A DNA stretch of 36,462 nt from an uncultured virus (IMG/VR IMGVR_UViG_3300032282_003039) (IMGVR_UViG_3300032282_003039:1-36462); one strand, 5' to 3'; shown: positions 4,306 to 18,630, numbered from the stretch's first letter. Made by a program: numbers and translations. Notes: a model not told the origin generated them from the sequence alone.

Positions 4306-4339
4306 TAATTTCTCCTTAATTTCTTGATATCCTACCATA

Positions 4340-4354
4340 TACTAATGCAAACTT
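4340..4354 (-). promoter_or_regulatory. phage-specific promoter -10-like element AAGTTTGCATTAGTA
   Basis: Same GCATTAGT core as the four plus-strand motifs; lacks the GGCGGA upstream element; lies just upstream of the primase-helicase gene. Confidence 0.6.
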
Positions 4355-4406
4355 CATAATATCTTTTAGTTATAAAGGTTGTTTTCTATATAACTAAAAG
4401 TTTGGT

Positions 4407-4526
4407 TTTGTACCAGTAGTACTAGTAGTACCCCTTTATTCTACTTTATTTTTTATTTTTTATTTTTAAATTAAAAAAATATAAAAAGAGTTGAAGTAAG
4501 GGGTACTACTAGTACTACCCATACAA
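4407..4526. repeat. 120-bp element A: inverted repeats around an AT-rich core (origin- or terminus-like)
   Basis: Perfect 21-bp inverted repeat 4416-4436 / 4498-4518 around an almost pure A/T spacer; inverted homologue at 15752-15871. Confidence 0.9.
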
Positions 4527-4623
4527 TTTTATATAGCGGCTTGAATACAGAGCCTAGGAGGCGTTTTCCAAAAAAGTAAGGGGGTAGTAGCACCACCCCC
4601 TTAAAAACGCCGTATAGAGCGTT

Positions 4624-4755: not shown

Positions 4756-4802
4756 AAAAATTTCACTCCTTTTTTTCAAAAAATCTAAACCTATATAAGG
4801 AC

Positions 4803-5003
4803 TTATTGAGGCTCATAGCCCGTTTGTTGAAGGTGCCGGTAAAACCATTTGCGAAAATGTTCCCTGTTTTTAGAGGTTTGCTTGTCGTTTGTGTCCCAAA
4901 CTGCCTGAATCACAAACTCCCCATCTAGGCTATGTGCCTCAATGTGGGTAAGATTACCCTCTTTATCGTATATGTCGGTGCAAATTACTCGCTTATCCAT
5001 CAT
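4803..5003 (-). CDS. hypothetical protein
   Basis: 66-aa ORF, ATGA-coupled to the upstream gene. Confidence 0.65.
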   Translation of the reverse strand: MMDKRVICTDIYDKEGNLTHIEAHSLDGEFVIQAVWDTNDKQTSKNREHFRKWFYRHLQQTGYEPQ

Positions 5004-5308
5004 AATTCCTTGATTTTGCTTGGTTTATCTTCCCATGAATCAACCACTCCATAATCCCCCCTACTTGATCTCATGCGTTCTTTTTCCCTAAATGCGGGTT
5101 CAACTTCTAACCATTCTTTAAATGCTTGTTTAAACTCTGCCCAATCTTCGTTTAAAACAAAAAGCGGGTGATTCATTCCAACAATATCGACTGTTTCGGT
5201 GTAATCTTTAGCGGGTATCCACTTTCCTTTTCCCCCAAAAATCTTGTTTCGTGCCTTAATAAATCTATCGTATGCCCTTTGTTGCTCATGGGTAAACTTA
5301 ATCATCAT
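5000..5308 (-). CDS. hypothetical protein
   Basis: 102-aa ORF overlapping the sigma-factor stop codon; SD GAGGA. Confidence 0.7.
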   Translation of the reverse strand: MMIKFTHEQQRAYDRFIKARNKIFGGKGKWIPAKDYTETVDIVGMNHPLFVLNEDWAEFKQAFKEWLEVEPAFREKERMRSSRGDYGVVDSWEDKPSKIKEL

Positions 5309-5867
5309 TGATATCCTCTAATTTTTCTTGGTTTAAATTGTCGATTGATACAGGTTCACGCATTACATAGCCCTGTAATTGGTTTAACTTAGCAACTGAT
5401 ATACCCATGATTTTTGCTAACTCATGCGGTTTTGGTTTTCTGCCTAGTATTTGGGATAATGCCCTGTCGTTGTAATTCATTTTCTTAACCAATTCCATGA
5501 TGTTAATTGGTAGTCTTATGATGTTGGCGGTGTTGTCTAACTCCCGCCTAACACCTTTTAAAATGAATGATTTTGCGTAGGTTGCAAACTTAGCCCTGTT
5601 TTTGGGTTTCCAACTTCGCCCCGCTAAAAACAGGCACTCATTACCCATAGCAATAATGTCCTCAACAGGCACTTTGCCATGATTCCATGCAGTCATCTTA
5701 CGCACTAAATACACTACAAAGCGTAGGTTGTGGGTGATGAGGGTATTTAATGCCCCATCATCACCCGCTTGTATGCGTTTTGCTAATTCGTGTTCCTGAT
5801 CTATTGTTAGGGGTTCGATTCCATAAAGGGCTTGTAGGTAATTGCTTAATAGGTCGTTTTCTGTCAT
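5298..5867 (-). CDS. sigma70-family RNA polymerase sigma factor (regions 1.2, 2, 3; no region 4)
   Basis: NYLQAL..LT..QE.ELA..IQAGD..A...LI..NLRFVV; GN..L; KFATYA..I; IIRLP; ELAKIMGIS...EPVSID, then a stop codon. Confidence 0.9.
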   Translation of the reverse strand: MTENDLLSNYLQALYGIEPLTIDQEHELAKRIQAGDDGALNTLITHNLRFVVYLVRKMTAWNHGKVPVEDIIAMGNECLFLAGRSWKPKNRAKFATYAKSFILKGVRRELDNTANIIRLPINIMELVKKMNYNDRALSQILGRKPKPHELAKIMGISVAKLNQLQGYVMREPVSIDNLNQEKLEDINDD

Positions 5868-5870
5868 TAA

Positions 5871-5909
5871 ATTTCATAATGTGAAATGGAAAACCCCGAT
5901 TATAACACA
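5871..5909 (-). promoter_or_regulatory. host sigma70 extended -10 promoter plus palindromic operator upstream of the phage sigma gene
   Basis: TGTG-T-TATAAT at 5909-5899 (TRTGn-TATAAT); palindrome ATTTCA-taatg-TGAAAT at 5871-5887. Confidence 0.6.
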
Positions 5910-5911
5910 AC

Positions 5912-6043
5912 TTAAAAATAATGTTTGTATAGCAAATAAAACCCTATTATTGGTATAACTATTAGTGATATCTCTGCTAAATTCTGAATAACCCAAATTA
6001 TTGTAACCAATGGTAAAAATAAAAACCCGCCAATAATGCTCAT
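5912..6043 (-). CDS. small hydrophobic membrane protein (43 aa)
   Basis: Manual translation MSIIGGFLFLPLVTIIWVIQNLAEISLIVIPIIGFYLLYKHYF; ATGA-coupled; SD GGAGAGG. Confidence 0.6.
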   Translation of the reverse strand: MSIIGGFLFLPLVTIIWVIQNLAEISLIVIPIIGFYLLYKHYF

Positions 6044-6228
6044 ATTAAAGCCTCTCCGCAAAGTAATAGTGAAGTTTCGTAAGGTGATGCCTGTTTAGGT
6101 AGTTTTTTTAGCGTTGTTCCCTTTGTTAGATATGGTCTAGCCTCTTGTTCGGTTGCGAATTTGCGTAAGGTGTCCCCAAACTCATCAACTAAAATAAATT
6201 TATACACAGATTGTTTAAACAACTTCAT
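6040..6228 (-). CDS. hypothetical protein
   Basis: 62-aa ORF in a tightly packed operon. Confidence 0.6.
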   Translation of the reverse strand: MKLFKQSVYKFILVDEFGDTLRKFATEQEARPYLTKGTTLKKLPKQASPYETSLLLCGEALI

Positions 6229-6478
6229 TGTCGCAAAATTTTTTGACTAGGTAGTAGTAATCTTTTCCTTCACCATTAAGTAAATGTTCGCCAACCCCTT
6301 CTAATGGTTTATTGTATTCGCAAAGGTTTAAGATACTTATTGCCTCAACAATCCATTGTGGCAATTCAGATACCTTTAGGTGCTTTACTACATCTGCGTA
6401 ATCCCTAGTAAGGTCTAAATCGGTGATGATTGCCTCATCACCGATTATATCCAATCGAAATGTATTGGGATATGTCAA
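6215..6478 (-). CDS. hypothetical protein; possible paralogue of the C-terminus of 6475..7305
   Basis: ELPQWIVEAISILNL...EGVG resembles DLPQDILEKLVILDL...EGLG in the upstream protein. Confidence 0.7.
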   Translation of the reverse strand: MTYPNTFRLDIIGDEAIITDLDLTRDYADVVKHLKVSELPQWIVEAISILNLCEYNKPLEGVGEHLLNGEGKDYYYLVKKFCDNEVV

Positions 6479-7305
6479 GCGAACACCGAATAAAAATCGG
6501 GTTTTTCTTTAACTCCCAACCCCTCATGCACTTCTATATTTTTTATATCCATGAGGTCTAGTATAACAAGTTTTTCTAAAATGTCTTGAGGTAGGTCTTG
6601 TTTAAACTTAACCACTATTTCGTCTGCAATAGGGCTATCTTTTTCAAACAATCTATACACAACTTGCGAGTTTCTTACCCACACATTATAATATTGCGGA
6701 TTATATACAGAAGTTTTAGATTCTTTTTCTTTGTAGGCTACTAAAAATTCAATAGCCTCTTGAAATTCTTTACTTATCGGTTTGTATCCTGTTTCATGCA
6801 ATTTCAGCATATCTGCGTGTAAACTATGCGGTATGTGATTAGTTCCATTATCTAACTCCCATGTATCGGTATTTTGTTTGCCGTAAATATGACTAGACAT
6901 CTGCCTAATATACAATCTGTCTTTATAATCCGACATTGTAGGTATTTTTAAAACCTCTTTAGCGATCTTAATGATATTTTTCATGTATATAGACGAATTA
7001 GCGTTCTCAGGTGAGCCACTCATATATCTACCCTGAGAATAAAAAGCACTACTAACCCACCATGCTTTATTATCTTTATAATATCCAATAGCCCCAACTC
7101 TTAGATCGGGTTCGTGTTTAAAGTAGATTTCGAGATAATTATAGTCGCAAGTTTCCTTACGATTCCATTCATTTTCTTTTGGTTTAAACAAGTAATTGTC
7201 ATTTTGTTTGATTAACTCATCACGCAAAACAATCACTTCGTCATTTAATTCAACATTATCTATTATTGTTTTCATAGTGTTATTCCCAACTCCTGTATTT
7301 ATCAT
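6475..7305 (-). CDS. hypothetical early protein
   Basis: 276-aa ORF; an alternative start at MKTIIDN follows SD AGGAG. Confidence 0.75.
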   Translation of the reverse strand: MINTGVGNNTMKTIIDNVELNDEVIVLRDELIKQNDNYLFKPKENEWNRKETCDYNYLEIYFKHEPDLRVGAIGYYKDNKAWWVSSAFYSQGRYMSGSPENANSSIYMKNIIKIAKEVLKIPTMSDYKDRLYIRQMSSHIYGKQNTDTWELDNGTNHIPHSLHADMLKLHETGYKPISKEFQEAIEFLVAYKEKESKTSVYNPQYYNVWVRNSQVVYRLFEKDSPIADEIVVKFKQDLPQDILEKLVILDLMDIKNIEVHEGLGVKEKPDFYSVFA

Positions 7306-8206
7306 AGACTAATTCACCTATTGGCACTTCAACTAATTTAAAAGGTTTTACTTTACGATATAGATGATTGTAAATGTATTTATTAAGTGATTTTTTATTG
7401 TATTCAATCGTATGCCTACCAAAATTATAGTATTCATTTTTAATCATGCGTTTATATTTTTCCACCAACTCAAACCAAACCTGATCAGCATCATGTTTAA
7501 ACAAGATGTCAATCGGAATATCATCTAGCGGGTTGCCACTATGATATTTGTCTGTTTCAATCAAATCAATCATAGTGTTAGCGTAATCAACAAAGGGCTT
7601 GATGTTTTTCCTTAATTCTTTGGTCTGTTCTTTATCTAACTCCCGAACAATCTCCCTATGCACTTGTAATGGTGAAAAATTGGGTTTATCTGGTTGCTTA
7701 CTAAAAACCAAATCACCCTTTGCCATTGTGTAGTATTTAGTCTTTTCATTAACAGTATGGGCTAAATATTTTTTACCCCTGTGGTTGTGCATACTAAACT
7801 CATGTGGCATTTTGTAATGGTAAAACCATAACATAGATGGGGTATCTAACCATCTAGGCATCAACTGATGGTTGTTCGTTTTGGGGGTATGAATTACGAT
7901 TGTTTCAGTATCATACCTTTTACTAAATGTAATTGCTCGACAATGGTTTTCAAAAACATCTTTAGTTTTGCTTTGAACCCAAGCATACGAATTAGCACTA
8001 ACATAATATTCTGTATCACTAACTTTAAAAACCCTTTCATGCGATCTGCCCCGATCACCAAGCGGTCTAATGTTTAAACTAGCCCTTTTGCCTTGAATTG
8101 GTTTTGTGTTTTCATAAATCTCTTTTACTTTATCAAAAGATAATCTATTTTGGTTGTCTATTTGCACTTGTAGGGGGGTGCGTGTTCCCCATTTTGAATA
8201 TCCCAT
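7280..8206 (-). CDS. hypothetical early protein
   Basis: 308-aa ORF, TAATG-coupled to the VWA gene. Confidence 0.75.
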   Translation of the reverse strand: MGYSKWGTRTPLQVQIDNQNRLSFDKVKEIYENTKPIQGKRASLNIRPLGDRGRSHERVFKVSDTEYYVSANSYAWVQSKTKDVFENHCRAITFSKRYDTETIVIHTPKTNNHQLMPRWLDTPSMLWFYHYKMPHEFSMHNHRGKKYLAHTVNEKTKYYTMAKGDLVFSKQPDKPNFSPLQVHREIVRELDKEQTKELRKNIKPFVDYANTMIDLIETDKYHSGNPLDDIPIDILFKHDADQVWFELVEKYKRMIKNEYYNFGRHTIEYNKKSLNKYIYNHLYRKVKPFKLVEVPIGELVYDKYRSWE

Positions 8207-9396
8207 TACATATCTCCCGAATCAATGTTAATAACTGAACCTACCTTTGGTATAGCGTGTGGATTATCTAAAATACACCATAAAACAGGGCAATTCCACT
8301 CACCACCCCAATCATCACCGACACAACCATCTGTCAAAACAATAGCACATACAGGAGTAATGCTATTCTTTTTCATGTATTTAGTGATACATTTTGGTGA
8401 TGTTCCCCCGCCACCTTTGGGCTTGGTTGATGTAGTCATTTTATCCCACTCACCCAATCCATAAACCTCATGCCCCGCAACTTCTGTATCCCAATAAAGT
8501 AAATCTACCAATTCGGGGTTTACATTTTCCATCATCTTGGAAACTTCACTAATGAATCGGTTTAAAATACGACCACCAATCGACCCTGAAGTATCAATAG
8601 CAACCACTACCCTACCCATTGTTTCGCTATATGTTGATGGCATATACATATCATGTTGCAACCATCTGCGATTAGGTTTTCGCCAAGTGCTATCGTCTTT
8701 TCCACTACATACTGCACTAACATACTCAGCGAGGGCGGTTTTCCAATCGACTTTTGCACTCATCAAATCGGTAAATGATCTATCAACTTTACCCCCAACC
8801 TTACCCGCTAAAATTGCACCCTGACGAATTGCTTGGTCTATCTCTTTTTCCAATTCTGCTTTTTCCTCGTCAGTCATCTCGTCTGCGTTTTCCCAATCAT
8901 GCTCATCTAGTTTAAACACACCATCACCCCCGCCACCATAACCATATTCGTCAGGCAATAATGCAAATACATCTGCGGTGCTTAAACCTTTAAACTTATG
9001 ATTGATTAGCCCACCTTCAGGCACGACACAAAATCGTTCGCCCTTGTTGTCGGTGTGTTCTTTACCCTCGTCATCAATCTCTAAATTGATAACATAATCA
9101 CAAGCCATATTAGTTTTGGTGCGGTTGATCTTGGCTAAGTGTTTCCATGTAAGCAAGTGTCTATACATCTTGTGTTTTGCCTCATGCAAAATCAAACCCC
9201 GCAACTCATTATCTTTTAGACTTTCAACAAAAGCACGACCATATTCAATATCCCGCCCATTGGTTCTAGCGGTGTCTAAATCATCAATCACTTTGGATTC
9301 ACCCACCATAATTAGACTTGTGTATGCCACAAATCCCTTATGCCTCATAATTTCGGTGTGTGCTTTTTCAATGCGTTGTTCTGCGGTTAGTTTCAT
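8206..9396 (-). CDS. HExxH metallopeptidase-like + VWA domain protein (DUF2201-like)
   Basis: TARTNG; LILHEAKH; NMACDYVIN; MIDAS motif AIDTSGS; GGGT; IVLTDG. Start reassigned to MKLTAEQRI at 9396. Confidence 0.88.
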   Translation of the reverse strand: MKLTAEQRIEKAHTEIMRHKGFVAYTSLIMVGESKVIDDLDTARTNGRDIEYGRAFVESLKDNELRGLILHEAKHKMYRHLLTWKHLAKINRTKTNMACDYVINLEIDDEGKEHTDNKGERFCVVPEGGLINHKFKGLSTADVFALLPDEYGYGGGGDGVFKLDEHDWENADEMTDEEKAELEKEIDQAIRQGAILAGKVGGKVDRSFTDLMSAKVDWKTALAEYVSAVCSGKDDSTWRKPNRRWLQHDMYMPSTYSETMGRVVVAIDTSGSIGGRILNRFISEVSKMMENVNPELVDLLYWDTEVAGHEVYGLGEWDKMTTSTKPKGGGGTSPKCITKYMKKNSITPVCAIVLTDGCVGDDWGGEWNCPVLWCILDNPHAIPKVGSVINIDSGDM

Positions 9397-9397
9397 G

Positions 9398-9790
9398 TTA
9401 AACCTTTCCCCAATAGCCATATACCATCTTGTTTGAGCAATCCCAAATATCATTTGGAATACCATCTATTACTGCCACATAATGCCCCGCTTGTTGGGCT
9501 ATTATTGCACCCTTAGGCATATCACTACACCTTGCCTTACGACCTTCAAACTTTGGTGCTGAGTGCCATATCCACCCATACTTTTTCAAAACATCTGAAT
9601 ACACATCTTTATAAATCCCATCTCTTGCGGATTTTTTAAAACCTTTATTTTTATTTGCTTGGGCTAATTCGTTATAAGCGGTTTGATAATCCAAACCTAA
9701 AGCGATTGATAATGCTCTTGCCCCGCAATCCCCCGCCCTACCCTTATAACCCGCTTTAGACCTACCACCATCATTAAATATAAAATTCAT
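9398..9790 (-). CDS. phage protein with possible Cys/His catalytic dyad
   Basis: NDGGR..AG.KG.AGDCGARA...GHYVAVIDG..D.WD; the peptidase-like function is an inference. Confidence 0.65.
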   Translation of the reverse strand: MNFIFNDGGRSKAGYKGRAGDCGARALSIALGLDYQTAYNELAQANKNKGFKKSARDGIYKDVYSDVLKKYGWIWHSAPKFEGRKARCSDMPKGAIIAQQAGHYVAVIDGIPNDIWDCSNKMVYGYWGKV

Positions 9791-9931
9791 AATTGCCTTT
9801 CATTGAATCCATAATATATTTTCGCCCACCTTGCTTGGAAAATATATTAGGGGAAACCCTAGTTTTGATATGGTAATGTTTCACAATATGAAATAGTTTC
9901 ATGTCAATAGGTGTTTACCCTAATATGTAGT

Positions 9932-10108
9932 TTAAACATTCTCCTCATAACTTAGGTATGGTTTATATGGTTTTAATGCTTTACCGAAAGCGTAATACAT
10001 TGGGCTAATTTCGTCAATTAAATTTTGTTTTTCTGCTTTAGTAATTGCCTTAAATAGTTTATGTTGCAAACTGTTTTCATATTCCAATTCAATTCTGCTT
10101 TTAATCAT
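9932..10108 (-). CDS. small hypothetical protein (58 aa)
   Basis: Manual translation MIKSRIELEYENSLQHKLFKAITK...EENV; preceded by GAGGGAGTTTAAACATT. Confidence 0.55.
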   Translation of the reverse strand: MIKSRIELEYENSLQHKLFKAITKAEKQNLIDEISPMYYAFGKALKPYKPYLSYEENV

Positions 10109-10125
10109 AATGTTTAAACTCCCTC

Positions 10126-11202
10126 TTAACTAGCAAACATATAATTATTATCGGTAGCCCACTTAATAAATTCCTTATTCGTGCCTACTATTAACTTTTT
10201 ATTGGTTCGCATAACTGATGTAGCAAATAGCCCTTGTGATTCTTTAGACAATCTAGCCATGTATTTTAACCAAAATGGCATTGTATCTTTTTCTACTTGT
10301 TGGACTGCGGAATAGACTAACATACATACTGCACTTGGGCTTTTAGGAATAGGTGTTTTAATCGGGTCTTTAATGATGCTTTCCCAATCAGGTAATTGAT
10401 CACCTAACTGAACAATACTTAGCGTGTCATATGTTGCTCTATCGCCAATCGTTCCCTTTAATGCGTGTCCTAAAATATCCATGCCTAATGGTTTTGCTTT
10501 TTTAATAATATCTGATGCTTTTTCTAAACTGCGTGGTGTCGTAAAAGATGGGCGGGGTGTGCGAGGGTCATAAATATATTCGTTATCTTTATGGTTGTCG
10601 TAATCTTCAAAAGATGCCAACATCTGCGGAAACTGTTTGACTGTTTGCAATATTTCAGGGGCTATCCCATTGTCAAGAGCATAATTTTCTAACCACTCAT
10701 CTGCGGTTGGTTTACGCACTTTCACTACGCACAATCTGTTTCTAGCGTGTGGCGGTAACATATCACCAATGCCTTCTGTTGCTAGGTTTGTAGTAGCGAA
10801 TACAATACTGCCTTTGGGTAATTCGTAAACCCCTAACTTGCGTTCTAGCATCAATCTTAAACAAGCGTTCATAACTGCTTTTGATGCCTTGCCAATCTCA
10901 TCAAGCATTAAAACAATGGGCTTATCGTGGTGAAAACCAAATTCCTCATTGGGAATAAAACTACAAACTTCGGTGTCGTTTAAACTTCTTATCTTCGGCA
11001 CTAGAAAATCCCCTACATCTTTAGTAGTCATATCACCATAACAGTAATGGTATCTATCGCCTAGTTTATCTCTAAGGGTTTTTAAGATTGATGATTTACC
11101 AATGCCCATTTCGCCCTGTGCTAAAACTGTGGTGTGCGTTCCAACTGCTAAAATAAGGTCTGCGGTTTGTTGAAGTGAAATTGATTTATATAAGTTTGAC
11201 AT
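10126..11202 (-). CDS. MoxR-like AAA+ ATPase
   Basis: Walker A GEMGIGKS; Walker B LMLDE; sensor I ATTN; NR arginine finger; TPRS sensor II; VWA partner gene nearby. Confidence 0.9.
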   Translation of the reverse strand: MSNLYKSISLQQTADLILAVGTHTTVLAQGEMGIGKSSILKTLRDKLGDRYHYCYGDMTTKDVGDFLVPKIRSLNDTEVCSFIPNEEFGFHHDKPIVLMLDEIGKASKAVMNACLRLMLERKLGVYELPKGSIVFATTNLATEGIGDMLPPHARNRLCVVKVRKPTADEWLENYALDNGIAPEILQTVKQFPQMLASFEDYDNHKDNEYIYDPRTPRPSFTTPRSLEKASDIIKKAKPLGMDILGHALKGTIGDRATYDTLSIVQLGDQLPDWESIIKDPIKTPIPKSPSAVCMLVYSAVQQVEKDTMPFWLKYMARLSKESQGLFATSVMRTNKKLIVGTNKEFIKWATDNNYMFAS

Positions 11203-11223
11203 TCTGTTGCCTTTATTGGTTGG

Positions 11224-11322
11224 TTATAAAGATAAAACTACAAATAAGAGTAAACCTAAAAATATAATAAGTAAAGCGGTTAATGCAAAAACTTCAAGGG
11301 TCGATTCGGTTTCATATTGCAT
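11224..11322 (-). CDS. single-pass membrane peptide (32 aa)
   Basis: Manual translation MQYETESTLEVFALTALLIIFLGLLLFVVLSL; preceded by GAGGGGGTTTAAAC. Confidence 0.55.
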   Translation of the reverse strand: MQYETESTLEVFALTALLIIFLGLLLFVVLSL

Positions 11323-11327
11323 AGCGT

Positions 11328-11528
11328 TTAAACCCCCTCTCTAAGTATGTTTAAATAGATTTCATTAACTGCCATTGTGATGCCATCAACTCGATCTTTA
11401 CCATATCGCCTACACATAATCTTATAGGTTCTATAATCGTCATCTTCTGCATTGATGTCGCTAATGATGTTCACAATTTCATAAAACTGTAATTCGGTTA
11501 GCGTTGGTTTTTCGTGGTCTTTAATCAT
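11328..11528 (-). CDS. hypothetical early protein
   Basis: 66 aa; GGGAG-TTTAAAC-ATG start context. Confidence 0.7.
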   Translation of the reverse strand: MIKDHEKPTLTELQFYEIVNIISDINAEDDDYRTYKIMCRRYGKDRVDGITMAVNEIYLNILREGV

Positions 11529-11742
11529 GTTTAAACTCCCTAAAATTAAAATCTTTTATCCATTCAACCCGAACAGTAGCGGGGTCAATCCACTTGGAAA
11601 GCATCTTAAATTCAGGGCTTTCAAGCGGGTAGGATACAAGTAAATGCCCCGCAAATCTAAACCCGCTTTCACCCACTTTGTCTAGTCGGTAAAAATGTGG
11701 TTCAGTTTTGCGGTGGTGATACAACTTTACAACTTTAACCAT
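11521..11742 (-). CDS. hypothetical early protein
   Basis: 73 aa; GTTTAAAC just before the ATG. Confidence 0.65.
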   Translation of the reverse strand: MVKVVKLYHHRKTEPHFYRLDKVGESGFRFAGHLLVSYPLESPEFKMLSKWIDPATVRVEWIKDFNFREFKHD

Positions 11743-11747
11743 ACTGT

Positions 11748-11930
11748 TTAAACTCTGCCATCTAGTAATTCGTTTAACCGAATTTGATACAATTCCTCTA
11801 CCGATTCAAACTCGAATGAATCAGCACCATAAATATAAAAAGTTTCACCCAATAGCGAATGAGCCTCTTTTACACTATCGCATTGTTCTAACTCATATAA
11901 AATTTTATTAAAAGGGTTTGGCATATCCAT
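11748..11930 (-). CDS. acidic hypothetical early protein
   Basis: 60 aa, 13 D/E versus 4 K/R; GAGGGT-GTTTAAAC-ATG start context. Confidence 0.7.
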   Translation of the reverse strand: MDMPNPFNKILYELEQCDSVKEAHSLLGETFYIYGADSFEFESVEELYQIRLNELLDGRV

Positions 11931-11932
11931 GT

Positions 11933-12154
11933 TTAAACACCCTCGCTATAAATTTCGGATTCGTCAGGGTCAATCGTATAGTCGCAACTATCAAGCCAAT
12001 CATTAAACCCGCACCTGTAAGCGGTTGGGTCTAACTCTTTTAATACTCTGCTAGGGTCAAACTCTATCCCCGCTATATTGATCGGGGAATAGAGTTCGTC
12101 TAACATTTCGTCATATAAATCTAAAGCGGTTGATTCGTCTATAAATTCAAGCAT
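11933..12154 (-). CDS. highly acidic early protein (candidate DNA mimic)
   Basis: 73 aa, 20 D/E versus 3 K/R; YDEMLDE...S.VLKE.DPTAYRCGFNDW; SD GAGG. Confidence 0.7.
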   Translation of the reverse strand: MLEFIDESTALDLYDEMLDELYSPINIAGIEFDPSRVLKELDPTAYRCGFNDWLDSCDYTIDPDESEIYSEGV

Positions 12155-12158
12155 AATT

Positions 12159-12276
12159 AGCCTCTTAGGTTGTAATGGTTTACTGCCCCCGCTTGTCTAG
12201 GCGGGTCTGTATTGGTTCACATATTGAGCCTCTTAGGTTGTAATGGTTTACTGCCCCCGCTTTTCTAGGCGGGTTT
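12159..12276. repeat. tandem duplication, 50-bp unit with 68-bp period, containing a hairpin and RBS
   Basis: AGCCTCTTAGGTTGTAATGGTTTACTGCCCCCGCTT(G/T)TCTAGGCGGGT at 12159 and 12227. Confidence 0.9.
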
Positions 12277-12321
12277 ATGGTTCGCTTTTGTGTGGTTGTG
12301 TGTCCTTTCATGGTTCGTGGT

Positions 12322-12495
12322 CTAGGTATTGTTTAAACATTCCCCAACTTTTACTGCGTGAGCCATATTTAGGATATGCTCAAATAATCCATCTAATTTA
12401 GGCGATGCGTAGCCATGTAGTGCAAGGTCTAACAGGGCAATATCATCATTGTATAAGGTTAATGATATGGTGATGGGTGTGTCGTGGTTAATCAT
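12322..12495 (-). CDS. small hypothetical protein (57 aa)
   Basis: Manual translation MINHDTPITISLTLYNDDIALLDLALHGY...; preceded by GGGAGTATTTAAAC. Confidence 0.55.
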   Translation of the reverse strand: MINHDTPITISLTLYNDDIALLDLALHGYASPKLDGLFEHILNMAHAVKVGECLNNT

Positions 12496-12497
12496 GT

Positions 12498-12659
12498 TTA
12501 AATACTCCCTGTTGAAATTAAGCCATTCAAATAATCACCCGCCACTTTTATGTCGTTGTTTTCTTTTCTAAAACTGCCTTCGTAGATTGCTCGGTTTTCG
12601 TCAATCTCAAGCCAATCTAATATCCTACAAAATGCCTCAAATTCCTTTTTGGTCATCAT
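12498..12659 (-). CDS. small hypothetical protein (53 aa)
   Basis: Manual translation MMTKKEFEAFCRILDWLEIDENRAIYEG...; preceded by GAGGGAGTGTTTAAAC. Confidence 0.6.
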   Translation of the reverse strand: MMTKKEFEAFCRILDWLEIDENRAIYEGSFRKENNDIKVAGDYLNGLISTGSI

Positions 12660-12673
12660 GTTTAAACACTCCC

Positions 12674-12901
12674 TCATTTAGTTAATTCGTCAAAAAAATC
12701 TTGGGGCTTTTCTGTTGCCACAACACCATCAAGCCATTTATTTATATGTCGGGTTGTAGTGTTTGACCACTTCATAGCGGTTTTATAATATTCGTTGTCA
12801 TTAAACGAGTGATAAGCAACAGGGGTTTTGTAACTGAATAGCACCTTCCCATTGTTGGTTATGACTTCATTCATGTTTTTAGAGATTGGGTTTAATTGCA
12901 T
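12674..12901 (-). CDS. small early phage protein
   Basis: VLFSYKTPVA...KWSNTTTRHINKWL pattern, recalled from phage early regions; SD AAGGA. Confidence 0.75.
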   Translation of the reverse strand: MQLNPISKNMNEVITNNGKVLFSYKTPVAYHSFNDNEYYKTAMKWSNTTTRHINKWLDGVVATEKPQDFFDELTK

Positions 12902-12913
12902 GATGTTGATTCC

Positions 12914-13114
12914 TTAAAATATGGTTTTAAAAAAGGGTGTTTCGGGTTGTTTTAATTCTACCGAATAACCTAATTGTTTTGCAAGGTTTATTGTGTTCGG
13001 TAATAGGGTTTTAGTGTTGGCTATTTTGGCGAACACTTGGGCGGGTTCATTCACAGGGTAATAAACTGTATTCCCATAAACTTGCCTTTGCTCTATCAAA
13101 ATTGTTTGATTCAT
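12914..13114 (-). CDS. hypothetical early protein
   Basis: VYGN..YYPVN..A..FA.IA.TKTL pattern; SD AAGGA. Confidence 0.7.
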   Translation of the reverse strand: MNQTILIEQRQVYGNTVYYPVNEPAQVFAKIANTKTLLPNTINLAKQLGYSVELKQPETPFFKTIF

Positions 13115-13126
13115 TTTGGTTTTTCC

Positions 13127-13345
13127 TTAATCGTTTAGTGGAATGTTGTTGGCTTCTAAAATCTTACATAATAAATTTTCTATAATCAACACCTTTCGCC
13201 CTGTCGCTGAAATGTCTAATTCATCAGCAATAAAAAACAATTTATTCTGTTCGTTATTGTATTTGATGGCATTGTCAAGGGTTAAAAACTTGTCAAGGTT
13301 TTGGGTTGTGTTGATGGTCTTAATGAATTGGTCTGATGGTTGCAT
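13127..13345 (-). CDS. hypothetical early protein
   Basis: 72-aa ORF; GTTTAAAC before the ATG. Confidence 0.6.
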   Translation of the reverse strand: MQPSDQFIKTINTTQNLDKFLTLDNAIKYNNEQNKLFFIADELDISATGRKVLIIENLLCKILEANNIPLND

Positions 13346-13383
13346 GGTGTTTAAACAATGCGGGGTTTCCCCCGCACCCTTTC

Positions 13384-13584
13384 TTATATGGTTGGTTTGC
13401 CTAGCATTGTGGCTAATTGGTTATAAACTGCGGTTTTATTGCCCTTATATCCCAATTCGCTTTTGATAATAGAGTAAGCGGTTCTACCTCTATTCATGCG
13501 TAGCCCTTTAATTTCAAGTTTTAAACCTGAGAGCAAAGTAAAATAGCGAAATAACTCGATTTTTTCGGGGGTGTCTATCATCAT
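13384..13584 (-). CDS. hypothetical early protein
   Basis: L.SGLKLEIKG.RM.RGRTAY.IIK.ELG.KG pattern; SD AAGGA. Confidence 0.7.
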   Translation of the reverse strand: MMIDTPEKIELFRYFTLLSGLKLEIKGLRMNRGRTAYSIIKSELGYKGNKTAVYNQLATMLGKPTI

Positions 13585-13795
13585 GTTATCTATTCCTTTT
13601 TAGGTTAGTGTTTCAATATATGGCTAATTGCCACAATTAAATTAGATCAAACTGTGAAGATTATGTAAAGGTTTTTTATATATCGAATAGTTATAAAACA
13701 ACTGTTTTTTATACTAAGGGTTTACCCTCGAAAATCGAGATCGTGGTGTTGGTGAGGTAAGGGTAGCCCGAACATAGAAAAGGGCTATAAACCCC
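13585..13795 (-). promoter_or_regulatory. early promoter/leader block, copy 2
   Basis: Shares GGTTAGTGTTTCAATATATGGC..AATTGCCA, GGGTTTACCCT..AAAATCGAGATCG and GGGCTATAAA with 15015-15250. Confidence 0.65.
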
Positions 13796-13888
13796 CTTAA
13801 AACTCGCCCAAATTGATTACGGGTTTATGGGCTTGGAACAAAGGCAATTTTTTGGCGGGGCGGGGCTTGTTTAAACAATGCAAGGGGC

Positions 13889-13915
13889 AAAAAAAATCGG
13901 GGCATAGCCCCGATT
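13889..13915 (-). terminator. Rho-independent terminator
   Basis: Minus strand reads AATCGGGGC-TAT-GCCCCGATT followed by a T run, downstream of 13935..14312. Confidence 0.8.
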
Positions 13916-13934
13916 GGTTTAAACACTTGGTAGG

Positions 13935-14312
13935 TCAGAATGAATCGGGGTTGCAATCCCTGTTGTAATCTGCGAAATATTCCGCATCGCTGACCCAATC
14001 ATTAGCCTCACAAGCCTCACCATTTTTAGCGGGGGTTGATTTGGGTAGTAAAATCACCCATTCCCATATAGGGGCTTCAGTCCCGCATGAAAATTGACCT
14101 ACGCAAAAACAAACAGGGAAGGGGTAATCAAGATTAGGGCGGGAAGTGTTATAACCCGCACTATCAGCAACCCGCCAAGAGGTTGTTCGGGGGTTATGGC
14201 GGGGGAGATTAACTAGCCCCTCAATGGTTGCCCCTTGCGAATGAGGGCGGGGGATATCTTCGACAAACTCGCCCTTTTGTGATCTGCTTACATCATATTT
14301 AAAGACTTTCAT
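13935..14312 (-). CDS. hypothetical early protein
   Basis: 125-aa ORF with SD GGAG, followed by a terminator. Confidence 0.7.
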   Translation of the reverse strand: MKVFKYDVSRSQKGEFVEDIPRPHSQGATIEGLVNLPRHNPRTTSWRVADSAGYNTSRPNLDYPFPVCFCVGQFSCGTEAPIWEWVILLPKSTPAKNGEACEANDWVSDAEYFADYNRDCNPDSF

Positions 14313-14366
14313 TTTAGAATCTCCAATTAGTTTAAACAGGGGGCGGGATTGCCCCCCGCTTGGTTT

Positions 14367-15014
14367 TTATTCCTCGCCCTCGCCATCTTCGGGGGTGTAT
14401 TCACTCCACATTTTGCCATGACCTAGAGGGCATTTGGGAACCGCTATTTTTAACCATTTGCTAGATGTGCGTAAAGCATATCCACACTTTAGACACTTAC
14501 AAGCAAGATTGCGGGTGGTTTGCTTTTTATAGCGGGTTGAAAGGGTGGAGTGTGGATACTCACCCTCTGCCTCTACCCATTGGTTAATAAGGGCTAGTAG
14601 CCACTCACCCGCATTGGTAGAGGTGAGTTTACCCTCTAGTCCTACTGCCCTAGCACAATCACCAAAAACCTTGTTATGCCCCTCTTTATTGCCGACAGTA
14701 GCGTGACATAACTCATGCACTAAAACATCAATAACCCTAGCGGAATCGGCTAGGCTTGGCACAATCATAATTTGAAAGGTGTTATCGCTAGACATAGAGG
14801 GCGAGTAGCACTCGCCAAGTGTGAATCGCTTTTGATGGGCTTTTGTGTGAATCCCGCCACTAGCCAAAGAACAAGAGAGGCGAATATTGGCGGGGATTGT
14901 GTAGCCCTTTGAAGCAAACAAGGGGCGGAGATACTTATTGGTAATGAGGGTTAGCCATGCCTCACGATTGGCATTGGTAGCCGATTGGCTAGGGGTGTAG
15001 GTTAGTAGTAGCAT
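14367..15014 (-). CDS. SprT-like zinc metalloprotease-family protein with C-terminal zinc ribbon
   Basis: LGEC; VLVHELCHA...GHNKVF; C-terminal CLKCGY...CPLGH. Start reassigned to ATG 15014 (SD AGGA; the sequence upstream is the duplicated leader). Confidence 0.8.
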   Translation of the reverse strand: MLLLTYTPSQSATNANREAWLTLITNKYLRPLFASKGYTIPANIRLSCSLASGGIHTKAHQKRFTLGECYSPSMSSDNTFQIMIVPSLADSARVIDVLVHELCHATVGNKEGHNKVFGDCARAVGLEGKLTSTNAGEWLLALINQWVEAEGEYPHSTLSTRYKKQTTRNLACKCLKCGYALRTSSKWLKIAVPKCPLGHGKMWSEYTPEDGEGEE

Positions 15015-15280
15015 TTTTTCTATTCCTAATATGGTTAGTGTTTCAATATATGGCGAAATTGCCATACCTCAAAAATAATAGGAATGTTGTTTAAACTCTA
15101 TTAGGGGAAACCCTTAGTTTCTTTATTCTTTTTAGTTATGGGTTTGGGTTTCTATATACTTAGGGGTTTACCCTTACAAAATCGAGATCGCATAGGGCTT
15201 GATACTAACCCATCAACTGAGGGCAAAATGGCATGGCGGGGCTATAAAGGGCATTGGCGGGGTTTCATATTGTGGAATAG
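15015..15280 (-). promoter_or_regulatory. early promoter/leader block, copy 1, with palindromic operators
   Basis: Homologous to 13585-13795; AGGGGAAACCCT at 15103, AGGGGTTTACCCT at 15162, TTTCATATTGTGGAA at 15263. Confidence 0.65.
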
Positions 15281-15369
15281 CGTTTATTCGGTTTAGTGTT
15301 GTATTTATGCCACATCACCACTCAGGCTCTCGCACCCGCTTAGTTTAAACGCACTCAGCGTATCAGCCA

Positions 15370-15529
15370 TGTTGCACCGCACCATTGTTGCACCGCACAA
15401 AGACCATGATGCCATTGTGGTTATGTTGCACCGCACAAAGACCATGATGCCATTGTGGTTATGTTGCACCGCACCAATCAGCCATGTTGCACCGCACCAT
15501 TGTTGCACCGCACCATTGTTGCACCGCAC
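15370..15529. repeat. array of seven TGTTGCACCGCAC direct repeats
   Basis: Copies start at 15370, 15386, 15424, 15462, 15485, 15501 and 15517; includes an exact 38-bp tandem duplication. Confidence 0.92.
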
Positions 15530-15534
15530 CATCA

Positions 15535-15591
15535 TGCACCAATGTGGTGCATCATGCACCAAATTGGGGAACAATGCACCAATTTGGTGCA
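15535..15591. promoter_or_regulatory. three NtrC-consensus boxes at 20-bp spacing
   Basis: TGCACCA-atg-TGGTGCA (15535), imperfect TGCACCAAATTGGGGAA (15555) and TGCACCA-att-TGGTGCA (15575); established NtrC consensus TGCACCA-N3-TGGTGCA. Confidence 0.65.
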
Positions 15592-15594
15592 TAG

Positions 15595-15626
15595 GGGGTG
15601 TTGTAAAAAAGCAACACCCCTTTTTG
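15595..15626. other. inverted repeat GGGGTGTTG-N8-CAACACCCC followed by a T run (operator or plus-strand terminator)
   Basis: Perfect 9-bp inverted arms seen directly. Confidence 0.5.
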
Positions 15627-15751
15627 AGCCTCTCGACAAGGCTTAGGTCTGGGGGCCCCACAAAGCTCAAGTTTTTATATTTTTTCTGTAATTTTTTTTA
15701 ATTGAGAATTATTCCTATTTAAAGACCAACTATCAAGCACTTAGGCGCGAT

Positions 15752-15871
<120 letters not shown>

Positions 15872-15895
15872 TTTAAAATATATTTTTGGATTTAA

Positions 15896-15925
15896 GGCGC
15901 CAAACATATAAAGTTTGCATTAGTT
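15896..15925 (+). promoter_or_regulatory. putative phage late promoter (variant)
   Basis: GGCGCC-N15-GCATTAGTT, 5 nt before the ATG at 15931. Confidence 0.65.
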
Positions 15926-16239: not shown

Positions 16240-17194
16240 TTATTGGAAACCGGCAAGCAATTTAAAGCCAGGAGATTACGTTTTTGACAAAGACGGCAAA
16301 ATAGTCCAAATCAAACTAGTTCAAGAGTACCGCGCCCAAAACTGCTATGAGGTTATGTTTAACGACTACCTGACCATAGCAGGAGATCAGCACTTAGGTT
16401 TCTTGGTAGAAACCCCCAGATGCCGAACCAGACAAGCTACGTACAAAGGCGTTAAAAAATTTAGACGGCCACTACAGTCAAAAACCGTCTCAGCCATTAG
16501 CGACTCCCAGCTAAGGGATAAAAGAAACCGCCTTACTCTATCCGTCCCCACTACAAAACCACTAACTTTCCCAGAGCAAGACCTTCCGGTACCGCCGTTT
16601 TTGTTTGGCTTTTGGTTTTTTAACCAAAGAAAGAACAAAACAATGGCGGCGCCTCCCGGAATGTCAAAAGAAATCTATGAGCAGTTTAAAGATTTTGGTT
16701 ACCAGATAACAGAATCTAAAAAACTTTACTCAGGAGAGCGGGAATTTTCCGTTTTTCCTACGATAGAATCCCATTTACTGCCAAACATTCCAAACAGAAT
16801 CCCAAACAATTACCTTTTAGCGTCAACAGAACAAAGAATTCAGCTTTTGCGCGGAATTTTATACGCAAAATCCAGGCAGTACTCTAAAAGTAAAGACAAA
16901 TTTAGGCTTACAACCAAGCACTACGCCATTATTTTGCAGCTTCAGTGTCTTTTAGAGTCACTTGGCCACAAACTTTTTGTGTTTTACGACACCAATAAAA
17001 AGTACTACACCATTTTCTTTAAATCTAGGTTACAATTGGTAAGTAATCAAACATCTCCTCGAATAAAAGTACACCATACAAGGCGGTATATTAAGAAAAT
17101 TGAACCAATTGCGTCTCAAATGTGCGTTCATATTGAAACAACAGGATCAGACAACACTATTCTCGTAGGAGAAGGATTTATTGCATGCCGTTAA
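16202..17194 (+). CDS. free-standing degenerate intein (Hint + LAGLIDADG-like), no exteins
   Basis: N-terminal Hint block (KVLT..YWK...LKPGDYVFDKDGK...YEV.F.D); LPVPPFLFG and YLLAS.EQR.QLLRGI LAGLIDADG-flanking motifs; C-terminal RYIKKIE...VHIE....LVGEGFI splicing block. Confidence 0.8.
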   Translation: MAILSNQKVLTLDYWKPASNLKPGDYVFDKDGKIVQIKLVQEYRAQNCYEVMFNDYLTIAGDQHLGFLVETPRCRTRQATYKGVKKFRRPLQSKTVSAISDSQLRDKRNRLTLSVPTTKPLTFPEQDLPVPPFLFGFWFFNQRKNKTMAAPPGMSKEIYEQFKDFGYQITESKKLYSGEREFSVFPTIESHLLPNIPNRIPNNYLLASTEQRIQLLRGILYAKSRQYSKSKDKFRLTTKHYAIILQLQCLLESLGHKLFVFYDTNKKYYTIFFKSRLQLVSNQTSPRIKVHHTRRYIKKIEPIASQMCVHIETTGSDNTILVGEGFIACR

Positions 17195-18630
17195 ATGAAA
17201 AACAAATATCCATACTTAAAAAATTTGCAGACGCCAACCAACACTGGCCCAAACAGCAGCTTGAAGCTGCGATATGGCAAGTTAAATGGGCACTACAAGC
17301 GCTTCCTCATCAAAAAGAGCCTGAGGATGGTGAATATGACACTTTTCTTATGTTGGCTGGGCGCGGATCGGGCAAAACGCACACGGCGTCCCATTGGATT
17401 GGGATTCGTGCTTGGAAATATGATAATACTCGGTGGCTTGTTACTGCTCCAACCTCAAATGACATTCGTGCGACCTGTTTTGAAGGAGATTCAGGACTCC
17501 TTAACATTCTCCCACCCAGCATCATCCGCGATTACAATAAGTCCTTATTCGAGATTACTCTTACCAATGGGTCAATTATCCAAGGAATCCCAGGATCGGA
17601 GCCCGAGCGATATCGCGGAAAGCAATATCATGGAGCTTGGTTCGATGAGCTGTGTGCTTTTGACTACATGGACGACGCCTATGATGGCGTCCAGTTTACC
17701 CTGCGTCTTAAAGACCCACGAATACGAAGGGTGCAACAGATTGTCACCACTACCCCTAAACCTAGAGAATTAATTGTAGATTTAGCAGAAGGTAAAATTG
17801 GCGGCGATGTGTACATGGTTAACGCCTCGTCATACGACAACAGATTAAACCTTTCTGAAACGTTTTTTAAACAGCTTGAGACGTACGATGGTACCGACAT
17901 TGGTAGACAGGAAATCTATGGAGAAATCCTTGACCCTGAATCGGCCGGCATTATCAAACGTAAGCAATTCCGCATGTGGCCGGCTAGTAAACCAACTCCT
18001 GTCTTGGAATATGTGATAGCATCATACGACCCAGCCACCAGCGAAAAAACAATGAACGACCCAACAGCGTGTACCGTTTGGGGTGTGTTTGAAAGAGAAG
18101 ACGCTGGGACTTGTGTCATACTGCTAGACAGTTGGGACGCACATCTGTCTTACCCTGAATTGCGCCGCAAAGTAATTGACGACTTTAAAGAGGTAGTCTA
18201 CGGGGCAGACAACGAGTTTGGCAAAGGCCGTAAAGCCGACCTTATTTTGATGGAAGATAAGTCAGCCGGTATTTCTTTGATTCAAGAGTTGCAAGGTTCT
18301 GGAGTGCCGGTCAGGGGCTACAACCCAGGAAGAGCCGACAAAGTACAGCGTTTGAACATTGTGGCTCCGCTGGTAGCTAAGGGCAAAGTCTACATCCCAG
18401 AAGACCCAAAACAAAGAGATACGTTTGCAGACTGGACTAAACGGTTCATACGGCAGGTATGTAGCTTCCCAGAAGCTCAAGGCCATGATGACTACGTTGA
18501 TTCTCTTTCCCAGGCTTTGCGGGTGCTTAGGGACTCAGGATGGCTTCAGCTAGACCCACTACCCGCCCGAGATTATGACTATGCGGACGACGATGTCAGA
18601 AAACGATTTGCTAATCCTTACGCCCAGTAG
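17185..18630 (+). CDS. terL: terminase large subunit
   Basis: Walker A AGRGSGKT; VTAPT; Walker B AWFDE; TTTP coupling motif; nuclease motifs SYDPA..D, EDKSAG and HDDYVDS. Confidence 0.95.
   Translation: MPLNEKQISILKKFADANQHWPKQQLEAAIWQVKWALQALPHQKEPEDGEYDTFLMLAGRGSGKTHTASHWIGIRAWKYDNTRWLVTAPTSNDIRATCFEGDSGLLNILPPSIIRDYNKSLFEITLTNGSIIQGIPGSEPERYRGKQYHGAWFDELCAFDYMDDAYDGVQFTLRLKDPRIRRVQQIVTTTPKPRELIVDLAEGKIGGDVYMVNASSYDNRLNLSETFFKQLETYDGTDIGRQEIYGEILDPESAGIIKRKQFRMWPASKPTPVLEYVIASYDPATSEKTMNDPTACTVWGVFEREDAGTCVILLDSWDAHLSYPELRRKVIDDFKEVVYGADNEFGKGRKADLILMEDKSAGISLIQELQGSGVPVRGYNPGRADKVQRLNIVAPLVAKGKVYIPEDPKQRDTFADWTKRFIRQVCSFPEAQGHDDYVDSLSQALRVLRDSGWLQLDPLPARDYDYADDDVRKRFANPYAQ

Follow-up and report, generated by a model that had tools for sequence, protein, structure and literature searches.

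Rusinov et al. reportedly described in 2018, as cited in PMC8594841 and PMC12455610, a genome-wide avoidance of restriction sites in phages, with a selective loss of Type II palindromic targets. In some phages, restriction is known from experiments on relatives of T5 and of T7 to act mainly on the first-injected part of the genome. According to part of one study (PMC10644984), T5 and BF23 are restricted solely via sites in the first-step-transfer (FST) DNA, and the rest of the genome is rich in sites yet protected by early functions still to be identified. Part of a second study (PMC12455610) describes Murciaviruses as restricted solely via a Type I motif in the early-injected region and holds that such avoidance makes no sense under headful packaging; it also characterizes conjugative plasmids' leading region as first-entering, depleted of restriction-modification targets and carrying anti-defence genes. 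Here we report on a linear IMG/VR virus record of 36,462 nt (IMGVR_UViG_3300032282_003039, referred to as the window; CheckV completeness 56%), which belongs to a tailed phage with a genome of roughly 66 kb. A segment of 10.8 kb next to the terminase gene, occupied by a putative early operon, is free of a large set of short restriction targets. Unlike genome-wide avoidance, this depletion is confined to 30% of the window and has step edges, and the flanks are normal or raised in the same words.

The palindromes ACGT, AGCT, CCGG, CGCG, GCGC, GGCC and GTAC occur 60, 79, 35, 32, 80, 41 and 95 times in the window, respectively. A first reading of the sequence alone had claimed by eye that these seven words are absent between 4850 and 15650, and each of them was counted at 0 there. 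The boundaries given by that reading were exact: the site-free gap extends from CCGG at 4836 to GGCC at 15654 (10,818 bp), in contrast to 422 sites in the remaining 25.6 kb, among which the runner-up gap is 1,065 bp. The sliding-window check that it had proposed revealed, with 1-kb windows, a step at ~5 kb and ~15 kb. For 6-bp palindromes containing G or C the observed/expected (O/E) ratio was 0-0.1 in eight of the nine 1-kb windows of 6-15 kb (0.37 in the 10-kb window), and for AT-only palindromes it stayed near 1 throughout. The sequence-only reading had also matched the boundaries roughly to a pair of twin elements, which indeed lie 309 nt (inner) and 97 nt (outer) beyond the edges of the purged segment. 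Altogether, the depletion was stronger and broader than it had been described.

Base composition predicts 171 sites of the seven words in the gap and a second-order Markov model 127, although the latter partly absorbs the depletion itself. When synonymous codons were shuffled within the 23 genes of the region (300 runs, protein sequence and per-gene codon counts preserved), 92 +/- 8 sites were expected (minimum 67), compared with a single observed one, the border CCGG at 4836. From the codon usage of the flanks, 139 +/- 10 sites were predicted. The non-coding DNA of the segment (1,685 bases) likewise contains none of the seven words. The GC content of 0.386 inside and 0.429 outside the segment cannot account for this depletion.

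The avoided set extends to many further words. At spacings of 0, 1 and 2 bases, CC..GG was counted 0, 0 and 0 times, CG..CG 0, 0 and 1, GC..GC 0, 0 and 0, and GG..CC 0, 0 and 1 (the single copies being one CGNNCG and one GGNNCC); from spacing 3 on, these S-S palindromes (S for G or C) were normal or above. Zero copies were found of ACSGT, CASTG, GASTC, CCWGG, GGWCC, GCWGC and CGWCG, and GTNAC occurs 4 times where 37 were expected. Leaving the seven words aside, G/C-containing 6-bp palindromes amounted to 12 instead of 76 expected (12 versus 62 for those with two G/C letters, 0 versus 13.8 for those with four), and ATTAAT was at 0 versus 8.7. Nine asymmetric 5-mers are missing from both strands (0/0), namely ACGGA and the eight Type IIS-type words GGATG, GAGTC, GGATC, GAGAC, GACGC, GCAGC, ACTGG and CACTG. 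ACGG/CCGT occurs 1/1 times versus 48 expected and CCAG/CTGG 0/2 times versus 47, the O/E ratio of the latter being 0.04 inside and 2.05 outside the segment.

These words were compared with the Biopython list of 617 distinct, REBASE-derived recognition sequences. From the 10.8 kb, 132 of 182 palindromic recognition sequences are missing, while two control stretches of matching length, also taken from the window, lack 34 and 59; for the 157 recognition sites of effective length <=5 the corresponding numbers are 56, 0 and 1. We also considered 5-mers with at least 9 expected copies in which none of the seven words is contained. Of these, 15 of the 65 that are known as recognition sequences and 12 of the 411 others are at zero (Fisher p = 1e-7), whereas outside the segment none of 485 such 5-mers is. 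Other words were kept: CATG (50 copies), CTAG (38), TGCA (41), TCGA (18) and GATC (16) are present in the segment, and CCGC, CCTC, GGTGA, CCATC and all AT-only palindromes are retained as well. Since CATG, CTAG, TGCA, CCGC, CCTC and AT-only palindromes show no depletion, the purge is not a general composition effect. The avoided set is restriction-like and does not comprise palindromes generally.

The 4-mers that were kept are nearly excluded from 6-bp palindromes; such a context was found for 0 of 50 CATG, 0 of 38 CTAG, 0 of 18 TCGA and 6 of 41 TGCA. Selection on early mRNA (by nucleases or through structure) or on a structural property of palindromic DNA, instead of restriction, would fit the systematic rule that every S-S palindrome with 0-2 spacer bases is absent, and the early-specific 8-bp palindrome GTTTAAAC indicates that other sequence-level signals are present in the segment. 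Such a cause is scarcely credible, however: all genes lie on one strand yet the asymmetric Type IIS words are missing from both, and thus selection acts on duplex DNA and not on mRNA. Furthermore, neither AT-only palindromes nor GTTTAAAC are avoided, CATG, CTAG and TGCA are tolerated outside 6-bp palindromes, and the absent words are enriched for known recognition sequences.

As separate observations on word usage, CATG is enriched in the segment, with its 50 sites opposed to 48 in flanks that are 2.4-fold longer, and the ‘safe’ words GGGG/CCCC, GCGG/CCGC and GGGT/ACCC reach O/E ratios of 2.6-3.2, so that G/C content appears to be parked in them. The sequence-only reading had called GCGGG/CCCGC abundant; in line with this, counts at the 4-mer level showed GCGG/CCGC, CGGG/CCCG and GGGG/CCCC to be enriched 2.4- to 3.2-fold.

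A search with the ATPase of the early operon yielded 18 IMG/VR loci with 73-87% identity, and a search with the terminase yielded three contigs from one metagenome-assembled genome (MAG) bin; all relatives considered (G001, G003, G004, L009-L026, L043-L045) are assembled contigs or loci. The purge is conserved among them in lineage-specific form. L009-L014 have the identical seven-word purge, spanning 10,424 bp where both edges are present, and in L015-L019 AGCT is outside the purge. In the group with 73-76% identity (L020-L026, the G004 group, with L020 as the locus of G004), CCGG and GGCC are purged, CGCG, GTAC and ACGT are purged in some records, and AGCT is not. L044 and L045 are purged as well. 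The long relatives G003 (59 kb, 91% complete) and G004 (66 kb, 100%) contain exactly one purged segment, immediately upstream of the terminase. The word content thus tracks the lineage, which is what would be expected of a purge mirroring the restriction repertoires of hosts.

Between the window and L014, 7,168 aligned bases of the segment show 75.8% identity, i.e. 1,734 mismatches (~24% divergence). Since 2,290 of the 32,442 possible single substitutions in the segment (7.1%) create a site of the seven words, ~120 new sites were expected under neutrality. None was found in either phage; thus, the purge is actively maintained and selection is ongoing. An early module acquired from a lineage or host environment with genome-wide avoidance, its purge being inherited history and not selected in the present place, is for this reason very unlikely. 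The module does appear exchangeable at the terminase junction: one MAG contig (L043) has a terminase 86% identical to that of the window, yet its upstream region (1-9900) is different, unpurged, lower in GC content and contains a single GTTTAAAC. With the closest group of relatives, an alignment is obtained for just 63% of the segment, which would also fit acquisition; however, the non-homologous inserts within the segment are purged too, and each lineage has its own avoided word set.

GATC behaves differently from the seven words. It is at 0 across the whole loci (13-21 kb) of L021, L023 and L026 only, and occurs once in the 18-kb locus L020; elsewhere, G004 has 1-4 copies per 2 kb over 0-22 kb, and the purged segment of the window has 16. 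The loss in L021, L023 and L026 suggests a defence met by these lineages that early functions leave un-neutralised.

The purge coincides with one predicted transcription unit. From 4.6 to 15.65 kb all plausible genes are on the minus strand; these 23 same-strand genes, many of them tiny, are predicted to form an operon of the early, host-takeover type, oriented divergently from the packaging genes. The twins bracket ~11.3 kb and flank the purge in the window, L014 and L018, the architecture being kept and the sequence not. At the outer border, the motif AAACTTG[A/C]GCTTTGTGGGGCCCCC (minus strand) with the core GGGGCCCC marks the purge edge to the nucleotide; it occurs once per record and always at the edge in the window, L009-L015, L018, L044 and L045, and is a candidate genome-end, packaging or early-leader signal. 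A repeat array between this edge and the first early gene was kept at the same border in L009-L015, L017-L019, G001 and G003. The contig of G001 ends 24 nt outside the edge motif, and that of L017 within the repeat array.

That the whole genome enters at once and only the early operon must survive to expression, the cut remainder being rescued by ligation, recombination or rapid nuclease inactivation, is unlikely, although several features would be compatible with it. What is purged corresponds to a unit of transcription, with a promoter-like site at one end and a terminator at the other, and not to a demonstrated physical unit; nuclease (VRR-NUC, 695-1093) and helicase (SNF2-like, 3-368) genes lie just past the region, and ligation was suggested, in part of the BASEL paper (PMC8594841), to aid the restriction resistance of T5 relatives. 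On the other hand, with 422 seven-word sites in 25.6 kb of flanks, one multiply cut genome has no template for reassembly. In addition, the outer edge is sharp and lies at a conserved motif, which accords more with a physical than with a kinetic boundary.

The explanation we favour, and a fairly probable one, is that restriction selects on the DNA exposed first, the early operon being kept free of Type II and Type IIS targets through strong and continuing selection. A site-free early operon is useful only if the rest is not equally exposed at the same time, so staged exposure would be required. The phages for which it has been published that the position of a site decides restriction sensitivity (T5, BF23 and Murciaviruses) have staged entry. 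The segment would occupy the last-packaged and first-ejected end of the linear virion genome, adjoining the terminase genes, and would meet the host cytoplasm at a time when no counter-defence of the phage is yet in place. Host RNA polymerase would transcribe it inward from that genome end, and its products would comprise the sigma factor for the next transcription stage and a broad anti-restriction function. These early products would act before the site-rich remainder becomes vulnerable, and entry of the remainder would be delayed by a mechanical stop near the inner twin (T5-like) or by dependence on transcription (T7-like). The purge spans the whole 10.8 kb and does not weaken away from the promoter, which would favour T5-like rapid entry and a pause over T7-like pacing.

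Packaging signals and genome ends commonly adjoin terminase genes. The segment fits this model in being terminase-adjacent and, as predicted, read inward, with a terminator-like hairpin and a large palindrome at the far end and a sigma factor aboard, and the inner twin is a candidate for an injection stop or a middle promoter. Genome ends at fixed positions are plausible in view of the single-copy edge motif, the two contig ends near the border and Caulobacter phage GB2A, the closest named terminase relative (42% identity), in which 2.9-kb direct terminal repeats are annotated beside the terminase genes. The sequence-only reading had taken the region for an FST segment exposed before the rest of the genome is protected. 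This idea is partly supported, namely by restriction-word specificity, action on double-stranded DNA, confinement to one early-type operon by the terminase, positional conservation, ongoing selection and the principle published for T5/BF23 and Autographiviridae; the likeness to T5 is looser than that reading had implied.

A related possibility is that the segment between the twins is a long direct terminal repeat collapsed in the assemblies, or that it is a virion stretch left unmodified while the rest carries protective modification; in both cases avoidance at the sequence level would be needed in this segment only. The T5 FST segment does sit within a 10.2-kb terminal repeat, GB2A has terminal repeats as well, the twins are ~11.3 kb apart in the window, L014 and L018, and collapsed repeats yield circular assemblies such as G004. 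However, the twins are inverted and not direct, and a long terminal repeat would be compatible with, not opposed to, restriction selection on first-exposed DNA. Regarding modification, five Pfam families (PF00145, PF01555, PF02086, PF00303, PF01702), covering DNA methyltransferases, thymidylate-synthase-like and TGT proteins, had no match in any of five records, three of which are at least 91% complete, which lends no support to self-methylation or hypermodification of the phage DNA. We know of no precedent for region-specific virion modification. As an alternative to restriction selection, this combined proposal is decidedly unlikely.

The FST region of T5 and BF23 is, as far as part of PMC10644984 and the annotation of the T5 record describe it, a first-exposed block of pre-early genes of roughly 10 kb, set off by a non-coding border rich in repeats and palindromes. 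The locus resembles it in comprising an early block of roughly 10 kb in which targets are absent while they are present in the rest of the genome. The twin palindrome at the inner border is in a position that would suit a T5-like stop signal, and L014 and L018 have versions of their own; it is absent in L020, and DnaA boxes, which mark the T5 stop region, show no enrichment (11 versus 11.1 expected). Unlike in T5, none of the region proteins gave a match to a PHROG annotated as A1, A2 or dmp (20 region proteins in PHROG, 19 in Pfam), and the window phage has twin inverted border elements, a sigma factor and 56 of 157 short specificities missing. With T7-like Autographiviridae, e.g. Murciavirus, it would share restriction selection on a sub-genomic part, early genes read inward, a terminator and then a switch in transcription specificity, all of which are described in part of PMC12455610 and are here predicted from sequence alone. 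The layout is accompanied by a sigma-70-like match at the outer end, although such matches are not in excess in the scanned stretch (35 versus 39.8 in shuffles), and by a strong terminator-like hairpin at the inner end. Unlike in these phages, in which one Type I motif is what counts and from which Ocr-like inhibitors are known, dozens of Type II and Type IIS words are avoided here. Moreover, different from T7, the segment encodes a sigma factor as the switch in place of a single-subunit phage RNA polymerase, and its first gene belongs to the SprT-like and not to the Ocr or SAM-hydrolase type. Unlike the plasmid leading region, the locus belongs to a phage, whose DNA enters double-stranded, and the N-terminal domain of the plasmid anti-restriction protein ArdC was undetected.

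Several observations weigh against restriction selection on first-exposed DNA or limit our confidence in it. No early protein matched a known anti-restriction family in the PHROG and Pfam scans. The FST region of T5 is not purged of 4-bp palindromes (ACGT 28 and GCGC 55 copies in 10.2 kb), the terminal repeat of GB2A is unpurged, and so is MW202545 (53% terminase identity); hence, a footprint as extreme as this would not be expected from staged entry alone. The complete relative G004 was assembled as a circle, with an end repeat of 123 bp located in the terminase gene, and where the contigs of G001 and L017 stop there may be a true end of the molecule or just a break of the assembly at tandem repeats or poly-T. 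Twin elements were not found in the distant G004 group, as examined in L020. Two sites of the seven words (4658 and 4699) fall in the last 260 nt of the early unit, and the stretch from the outer edge to the outer twin contains GGCC at 15654 and AGCT at 15664, in addition to the twin's GTACs. If the promoter-like site (15708-15736) is the real promoter, cleavage at either 15654 or 15664 would split it from the operon. Our confidence is held down by these words, by the T5 segment without a 4-bp purge, by the lack of a match to a known anti-restriction family, and by termini and staged entry that we infer.

The inner edge is softer than the outer one, with three sites (4836, 4699 and 4658) ahead of the inner twin in the window. 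In L014 it contains a single AGCT at 16498, and the next site follows only at 17269, 80 nt from the twin. The 309-nt offset between inner twin and purge edge was considered as the length of tail-shielded DNA and rejected, because the offset differs in L014 and L018.

While the principle is known, what appears to be new is a clade without close named relative in which dozens of 4-6-bp specificities are at zero over 10.8 kb with step edges, together with lineage-specific word sets, twin border palindromes, an edge motif and the early-only GTTTAAAC. Named phages of the phage collection searched reach at most 53% terminase identity, and a near-identity DNA search of it with 4500-16000 gave no match. 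The literature search returned the T5, BF23, Murciavirus and BASEL papers and no footprint of this kind; it covered open-access main texts, so an earlier description may exist. The locus provides a clean genomic footprint of first-injection logic in an uncultivated freshwater phage clade that shares no T5 pre-early functions. It suggests that a leading segment, and hence non-permuted packaging, is predictable from the genome itself, that the avoided word set records restriction specificities used by the host population, and that a broad anti-restriction function, of the kind awaiting identification in T5 as well, must be encoded among the 23 early genes. The lineage-specific word sets represent a natural experiment on the speed of avoidance versus host defences.

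As an extension of restriction selection on first-exposed DNA, the early operon might encode a sequence-independent disarming of Type II enzymes, e.g. by the DNA-dependent SprT-like protease, alone or with the MoxR and von Willebrand factor A (VWA) pair, stripping nucleases from the incoming DNA, and the twins might be lineage-specific gates bound by a co-evolving virion or early protein, by which the remaining genome would be held back in the meantime. We regard this proposal as doubtful. If true, disarming would explain how a site-crowded genome survives once the segment is expressed, and the purged-word set would be a read-out, obtained without any experiment, of the first-entering DNA and of the pooled restriction repertoire of the host population.

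Table 1. Features of the window in and around the restriction-word-free segment (positions in the window; ORF, open reading frame; a point denotes a feature given without strand)
Feature	Position	Strand	Remarks
Restriction-word-free segment	4840..15653	.	10,814 bp; zero sites for 7 four-bp palindromes
SprT/Spartan-like zinc metalloprotease (predicted), first early gene	14367..15065	-	PF10263, E = 7e-6; phrog_6361; 215 aa from the likely true start
Run of 11 small early ORFs of 57-125 aa, several of them strongly acidic	11328..14312	-	only PHROGs of unknown function
MoxR/dynein-type AAA+ ATPase	10126..11202	-	PF07728; phrog_1297, E = 1e-49
DUF2201 metallopeptidase + VWA-like protein	8206..9465	-	PF13203, PF09967, phrog_1314; commonly paired with the ATPase
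Short sigma-70-family factor (regions 1.2, 2, 3)	5298..5867	-	PF00140, PF04539, PF04542; phrog_351, E = 9e-28
Sigma-70-like promoter match TTGATA-17-AATAAT	15708..15736	-	best of the scanned stretch; points into the early operon; consensus only
Intrinsic-terminator-like hairpin, 12 pairs + T run, strong	4577..4603	-	closes the early unit just ahead of the inner twin
Outer twin, ~125-nt imperfect palindrome, GTACTAGTAGTAC-type arms, poly-T centre	15750..15875	.	hairpin z = -5.3; upstream of the plus-strand terminase/structural arm
Inner twin, mirror copy of the outer twin	4407..4531	.	hairpin z = -9.5; upstream of the minus-strand primase operon
18-nt leader TATAAAGTTTGCATTAGT	15907..15924	+	just upstream of the first plus-strand ORF
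Inverted copy of the 18-nt leader	4341..4358	-	94% complementary; upstream of the primase start codon at 4338
GGGGCCCC, core of the conserved edge motif	15652..15659	.	outer purge edge
Repeat array, 7 TTGCACCGCAC-type 16-mers + 3 CATCATGCACCAA.. 20-mers	15362..15590	.	between outer edge and first early gene
8-bp palindrome GTTTAAAC	5128..15350	.	22 copies, none elsewhere in the window
Primase-helicase (PriCT-2 / D5_N / DUF5906)	1984..4338	-	first gene past the inner twin; site density normal
VRR-NUC gene	695-1093		beyond inner end
SNF2-like helicase gene	3-368		beyond inner end
Large terminase (Terminase_6N/6C)	17185..18630	+	arm diverging from the early operon

The positions of all features are compiled in Table 1. 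The product of the first early gene is, by its predicted sequence features, SprT/Spartan-like, with an HExxH motif and a Cys-rich zinc-binding part. The SprT-like domain covers residues 81-142 (26.3 bits versus a cut-off of 25.6), and among 35 homologues little or no variation was seen at H100, E101, H104 (HExxH) and C172/C174/C177/C195; altogether 298 homologues were found. The AF2/AlphaFold model had a mean confidence score (pLDDT) of 83, and the best structure in the fold search of the PDB was human SPRTN (6mdx/6mdw), a weak match with E = 0.02. The SprT-type metalloprotease fold class also occurs in ArdC. An ArdC-like identity of the protein was considered and found no support, as the N-terminal ArdcN domain was undetected, the sequence search of the PDB was empty and ArdC was absent from the fold matches.

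Downstream of this gene, the small ORFs include very acidic examples such as 11933-12154 and 11748-11930, both with an isoelectric point of 4.1. Pfam gave no match for the ten ORFs between 11328 and 13584, nor for the 125-aa ORF at 13935-14312. A 130-aa protein is encoded between the MoxR ATPase and the DUF2201-VWA gene, and two function-unassigned proteins of 308 and 276 aa are encoded between the latter and the sigma factor gene; ESM Atlas look-ups of these two gave no usable match. For the DUF2201-VWA protein, the nearest named relatives by tblastn were found in the N4-like phages Presley, KpCHEMY26 and CB4 (27-30% identity). A giant virion RNA polymerase of the N4 type was considered and rejected, since neither G003 nor G004 contains an ORF of at least 2000 aa. 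The sigma factor gene is near the distal end of the operon and is followed by three further small ORFs. In the PHROG and Pfam scans the matches of the region proteins were confined to SprT-like, AAA_5, DUF2201 and sigma-70 families and to families without assigned function; an Ocr-like family was not among them.

Two repeat pairs were observed within the operon. A 55-nt direct repeat (12152-12206 and 12220-12274, 95% identical) is intergenic, each copy ending in a CCCGC..GCGGG hairpin; the pair could be attenuators or small-RNA-like elements. A 46-nt repeat (13582-13627 and 15012-15057, 85% identical) lies at or just upstream of the starts of ORF 13384-13584 and of the SprT-like gene, and may represent a promoter or leader that recurs in the early region. 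Two ORFs that extend across the repeat array at the outer border (15305-15670 and 15369-15701) are probably spurious.

The palindrome GTTTAAAC is concentrated in the purged segment of G001, G003, L014, L015, L019, L044 and L045, with 34 of 44 copies in G003 and 23 of 33 in G001, and is absent in G004, L022, L024 and L026. At least 7 copies in the window are located 0-3 nt from the start codon of an ORF of at least 32 aa, some of them behind a Shine-Dalgarno sequence of the GGGAG type; other copies are within genes, in various frames. Its role could be that of a binding site or of a signal in early mRNA.

The arms of the twins are made of GTACTAGTAGTAC around an AT or poly-T centre, with just two copies in the window, and the ~330-nt intergenic stretches containing them, aligned outward, have a mean column identity of 74%. 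Outward of each twin the common 18-nt leader is followed by the first gene of an outward-reading operon. In L014 the twins (5773-5993 and 17347-17568) consist of TTGTCCGAC units, one pair of arms being 93% complementary, and in L018 (6278-6502 and 17482-17706) they consist of TTGTCAGGGT units with a similar TGCATTAGTA pair alongside. Such a pattern suggests that the two copies undergo gene conversion or that they have a binding partner specific to the lineage.

The sole host clue is the bin of the three related contigs, titled ‘uncultured beta proteobacterium’, and binning is weak evidence; a tRNA search, as a further host clue, returned no genes. Beyond the inner end, the primase-helicase and other replication genes are on the same strand as the early operon, and the plus-strand arm past the outer end contains the large terminase, portal, capsid and tail-fibre genes. 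A 330-aa ORF (16202-17194, +) overlaps the terminase start; it matches only the part of terminase PHROGs that corresponds to an N-terminal insert (phrog_15, 83-315/1330) and no Pfam family, and may be a free-standing Hint or homing-endonuclease-like gene. A weaker low-palindrome stretch (27203-31231, +; O/E ratio of 4-bp palindromes 0.28-0.47), which contains the second-largest gap of 1,065 bp, corresponds to a collagen-like tail-fibre gene of 1342 aa in which GC skew is strong; composition or repeats, and not the same phenomenon, are the probable cause. Finally, two genes for family-2 glycosyltransferases, one of them fused to an S-adenosylmethionine (SAM) methyltransferase domain, are situated among the tail-fibre genes (31281-33519, +).

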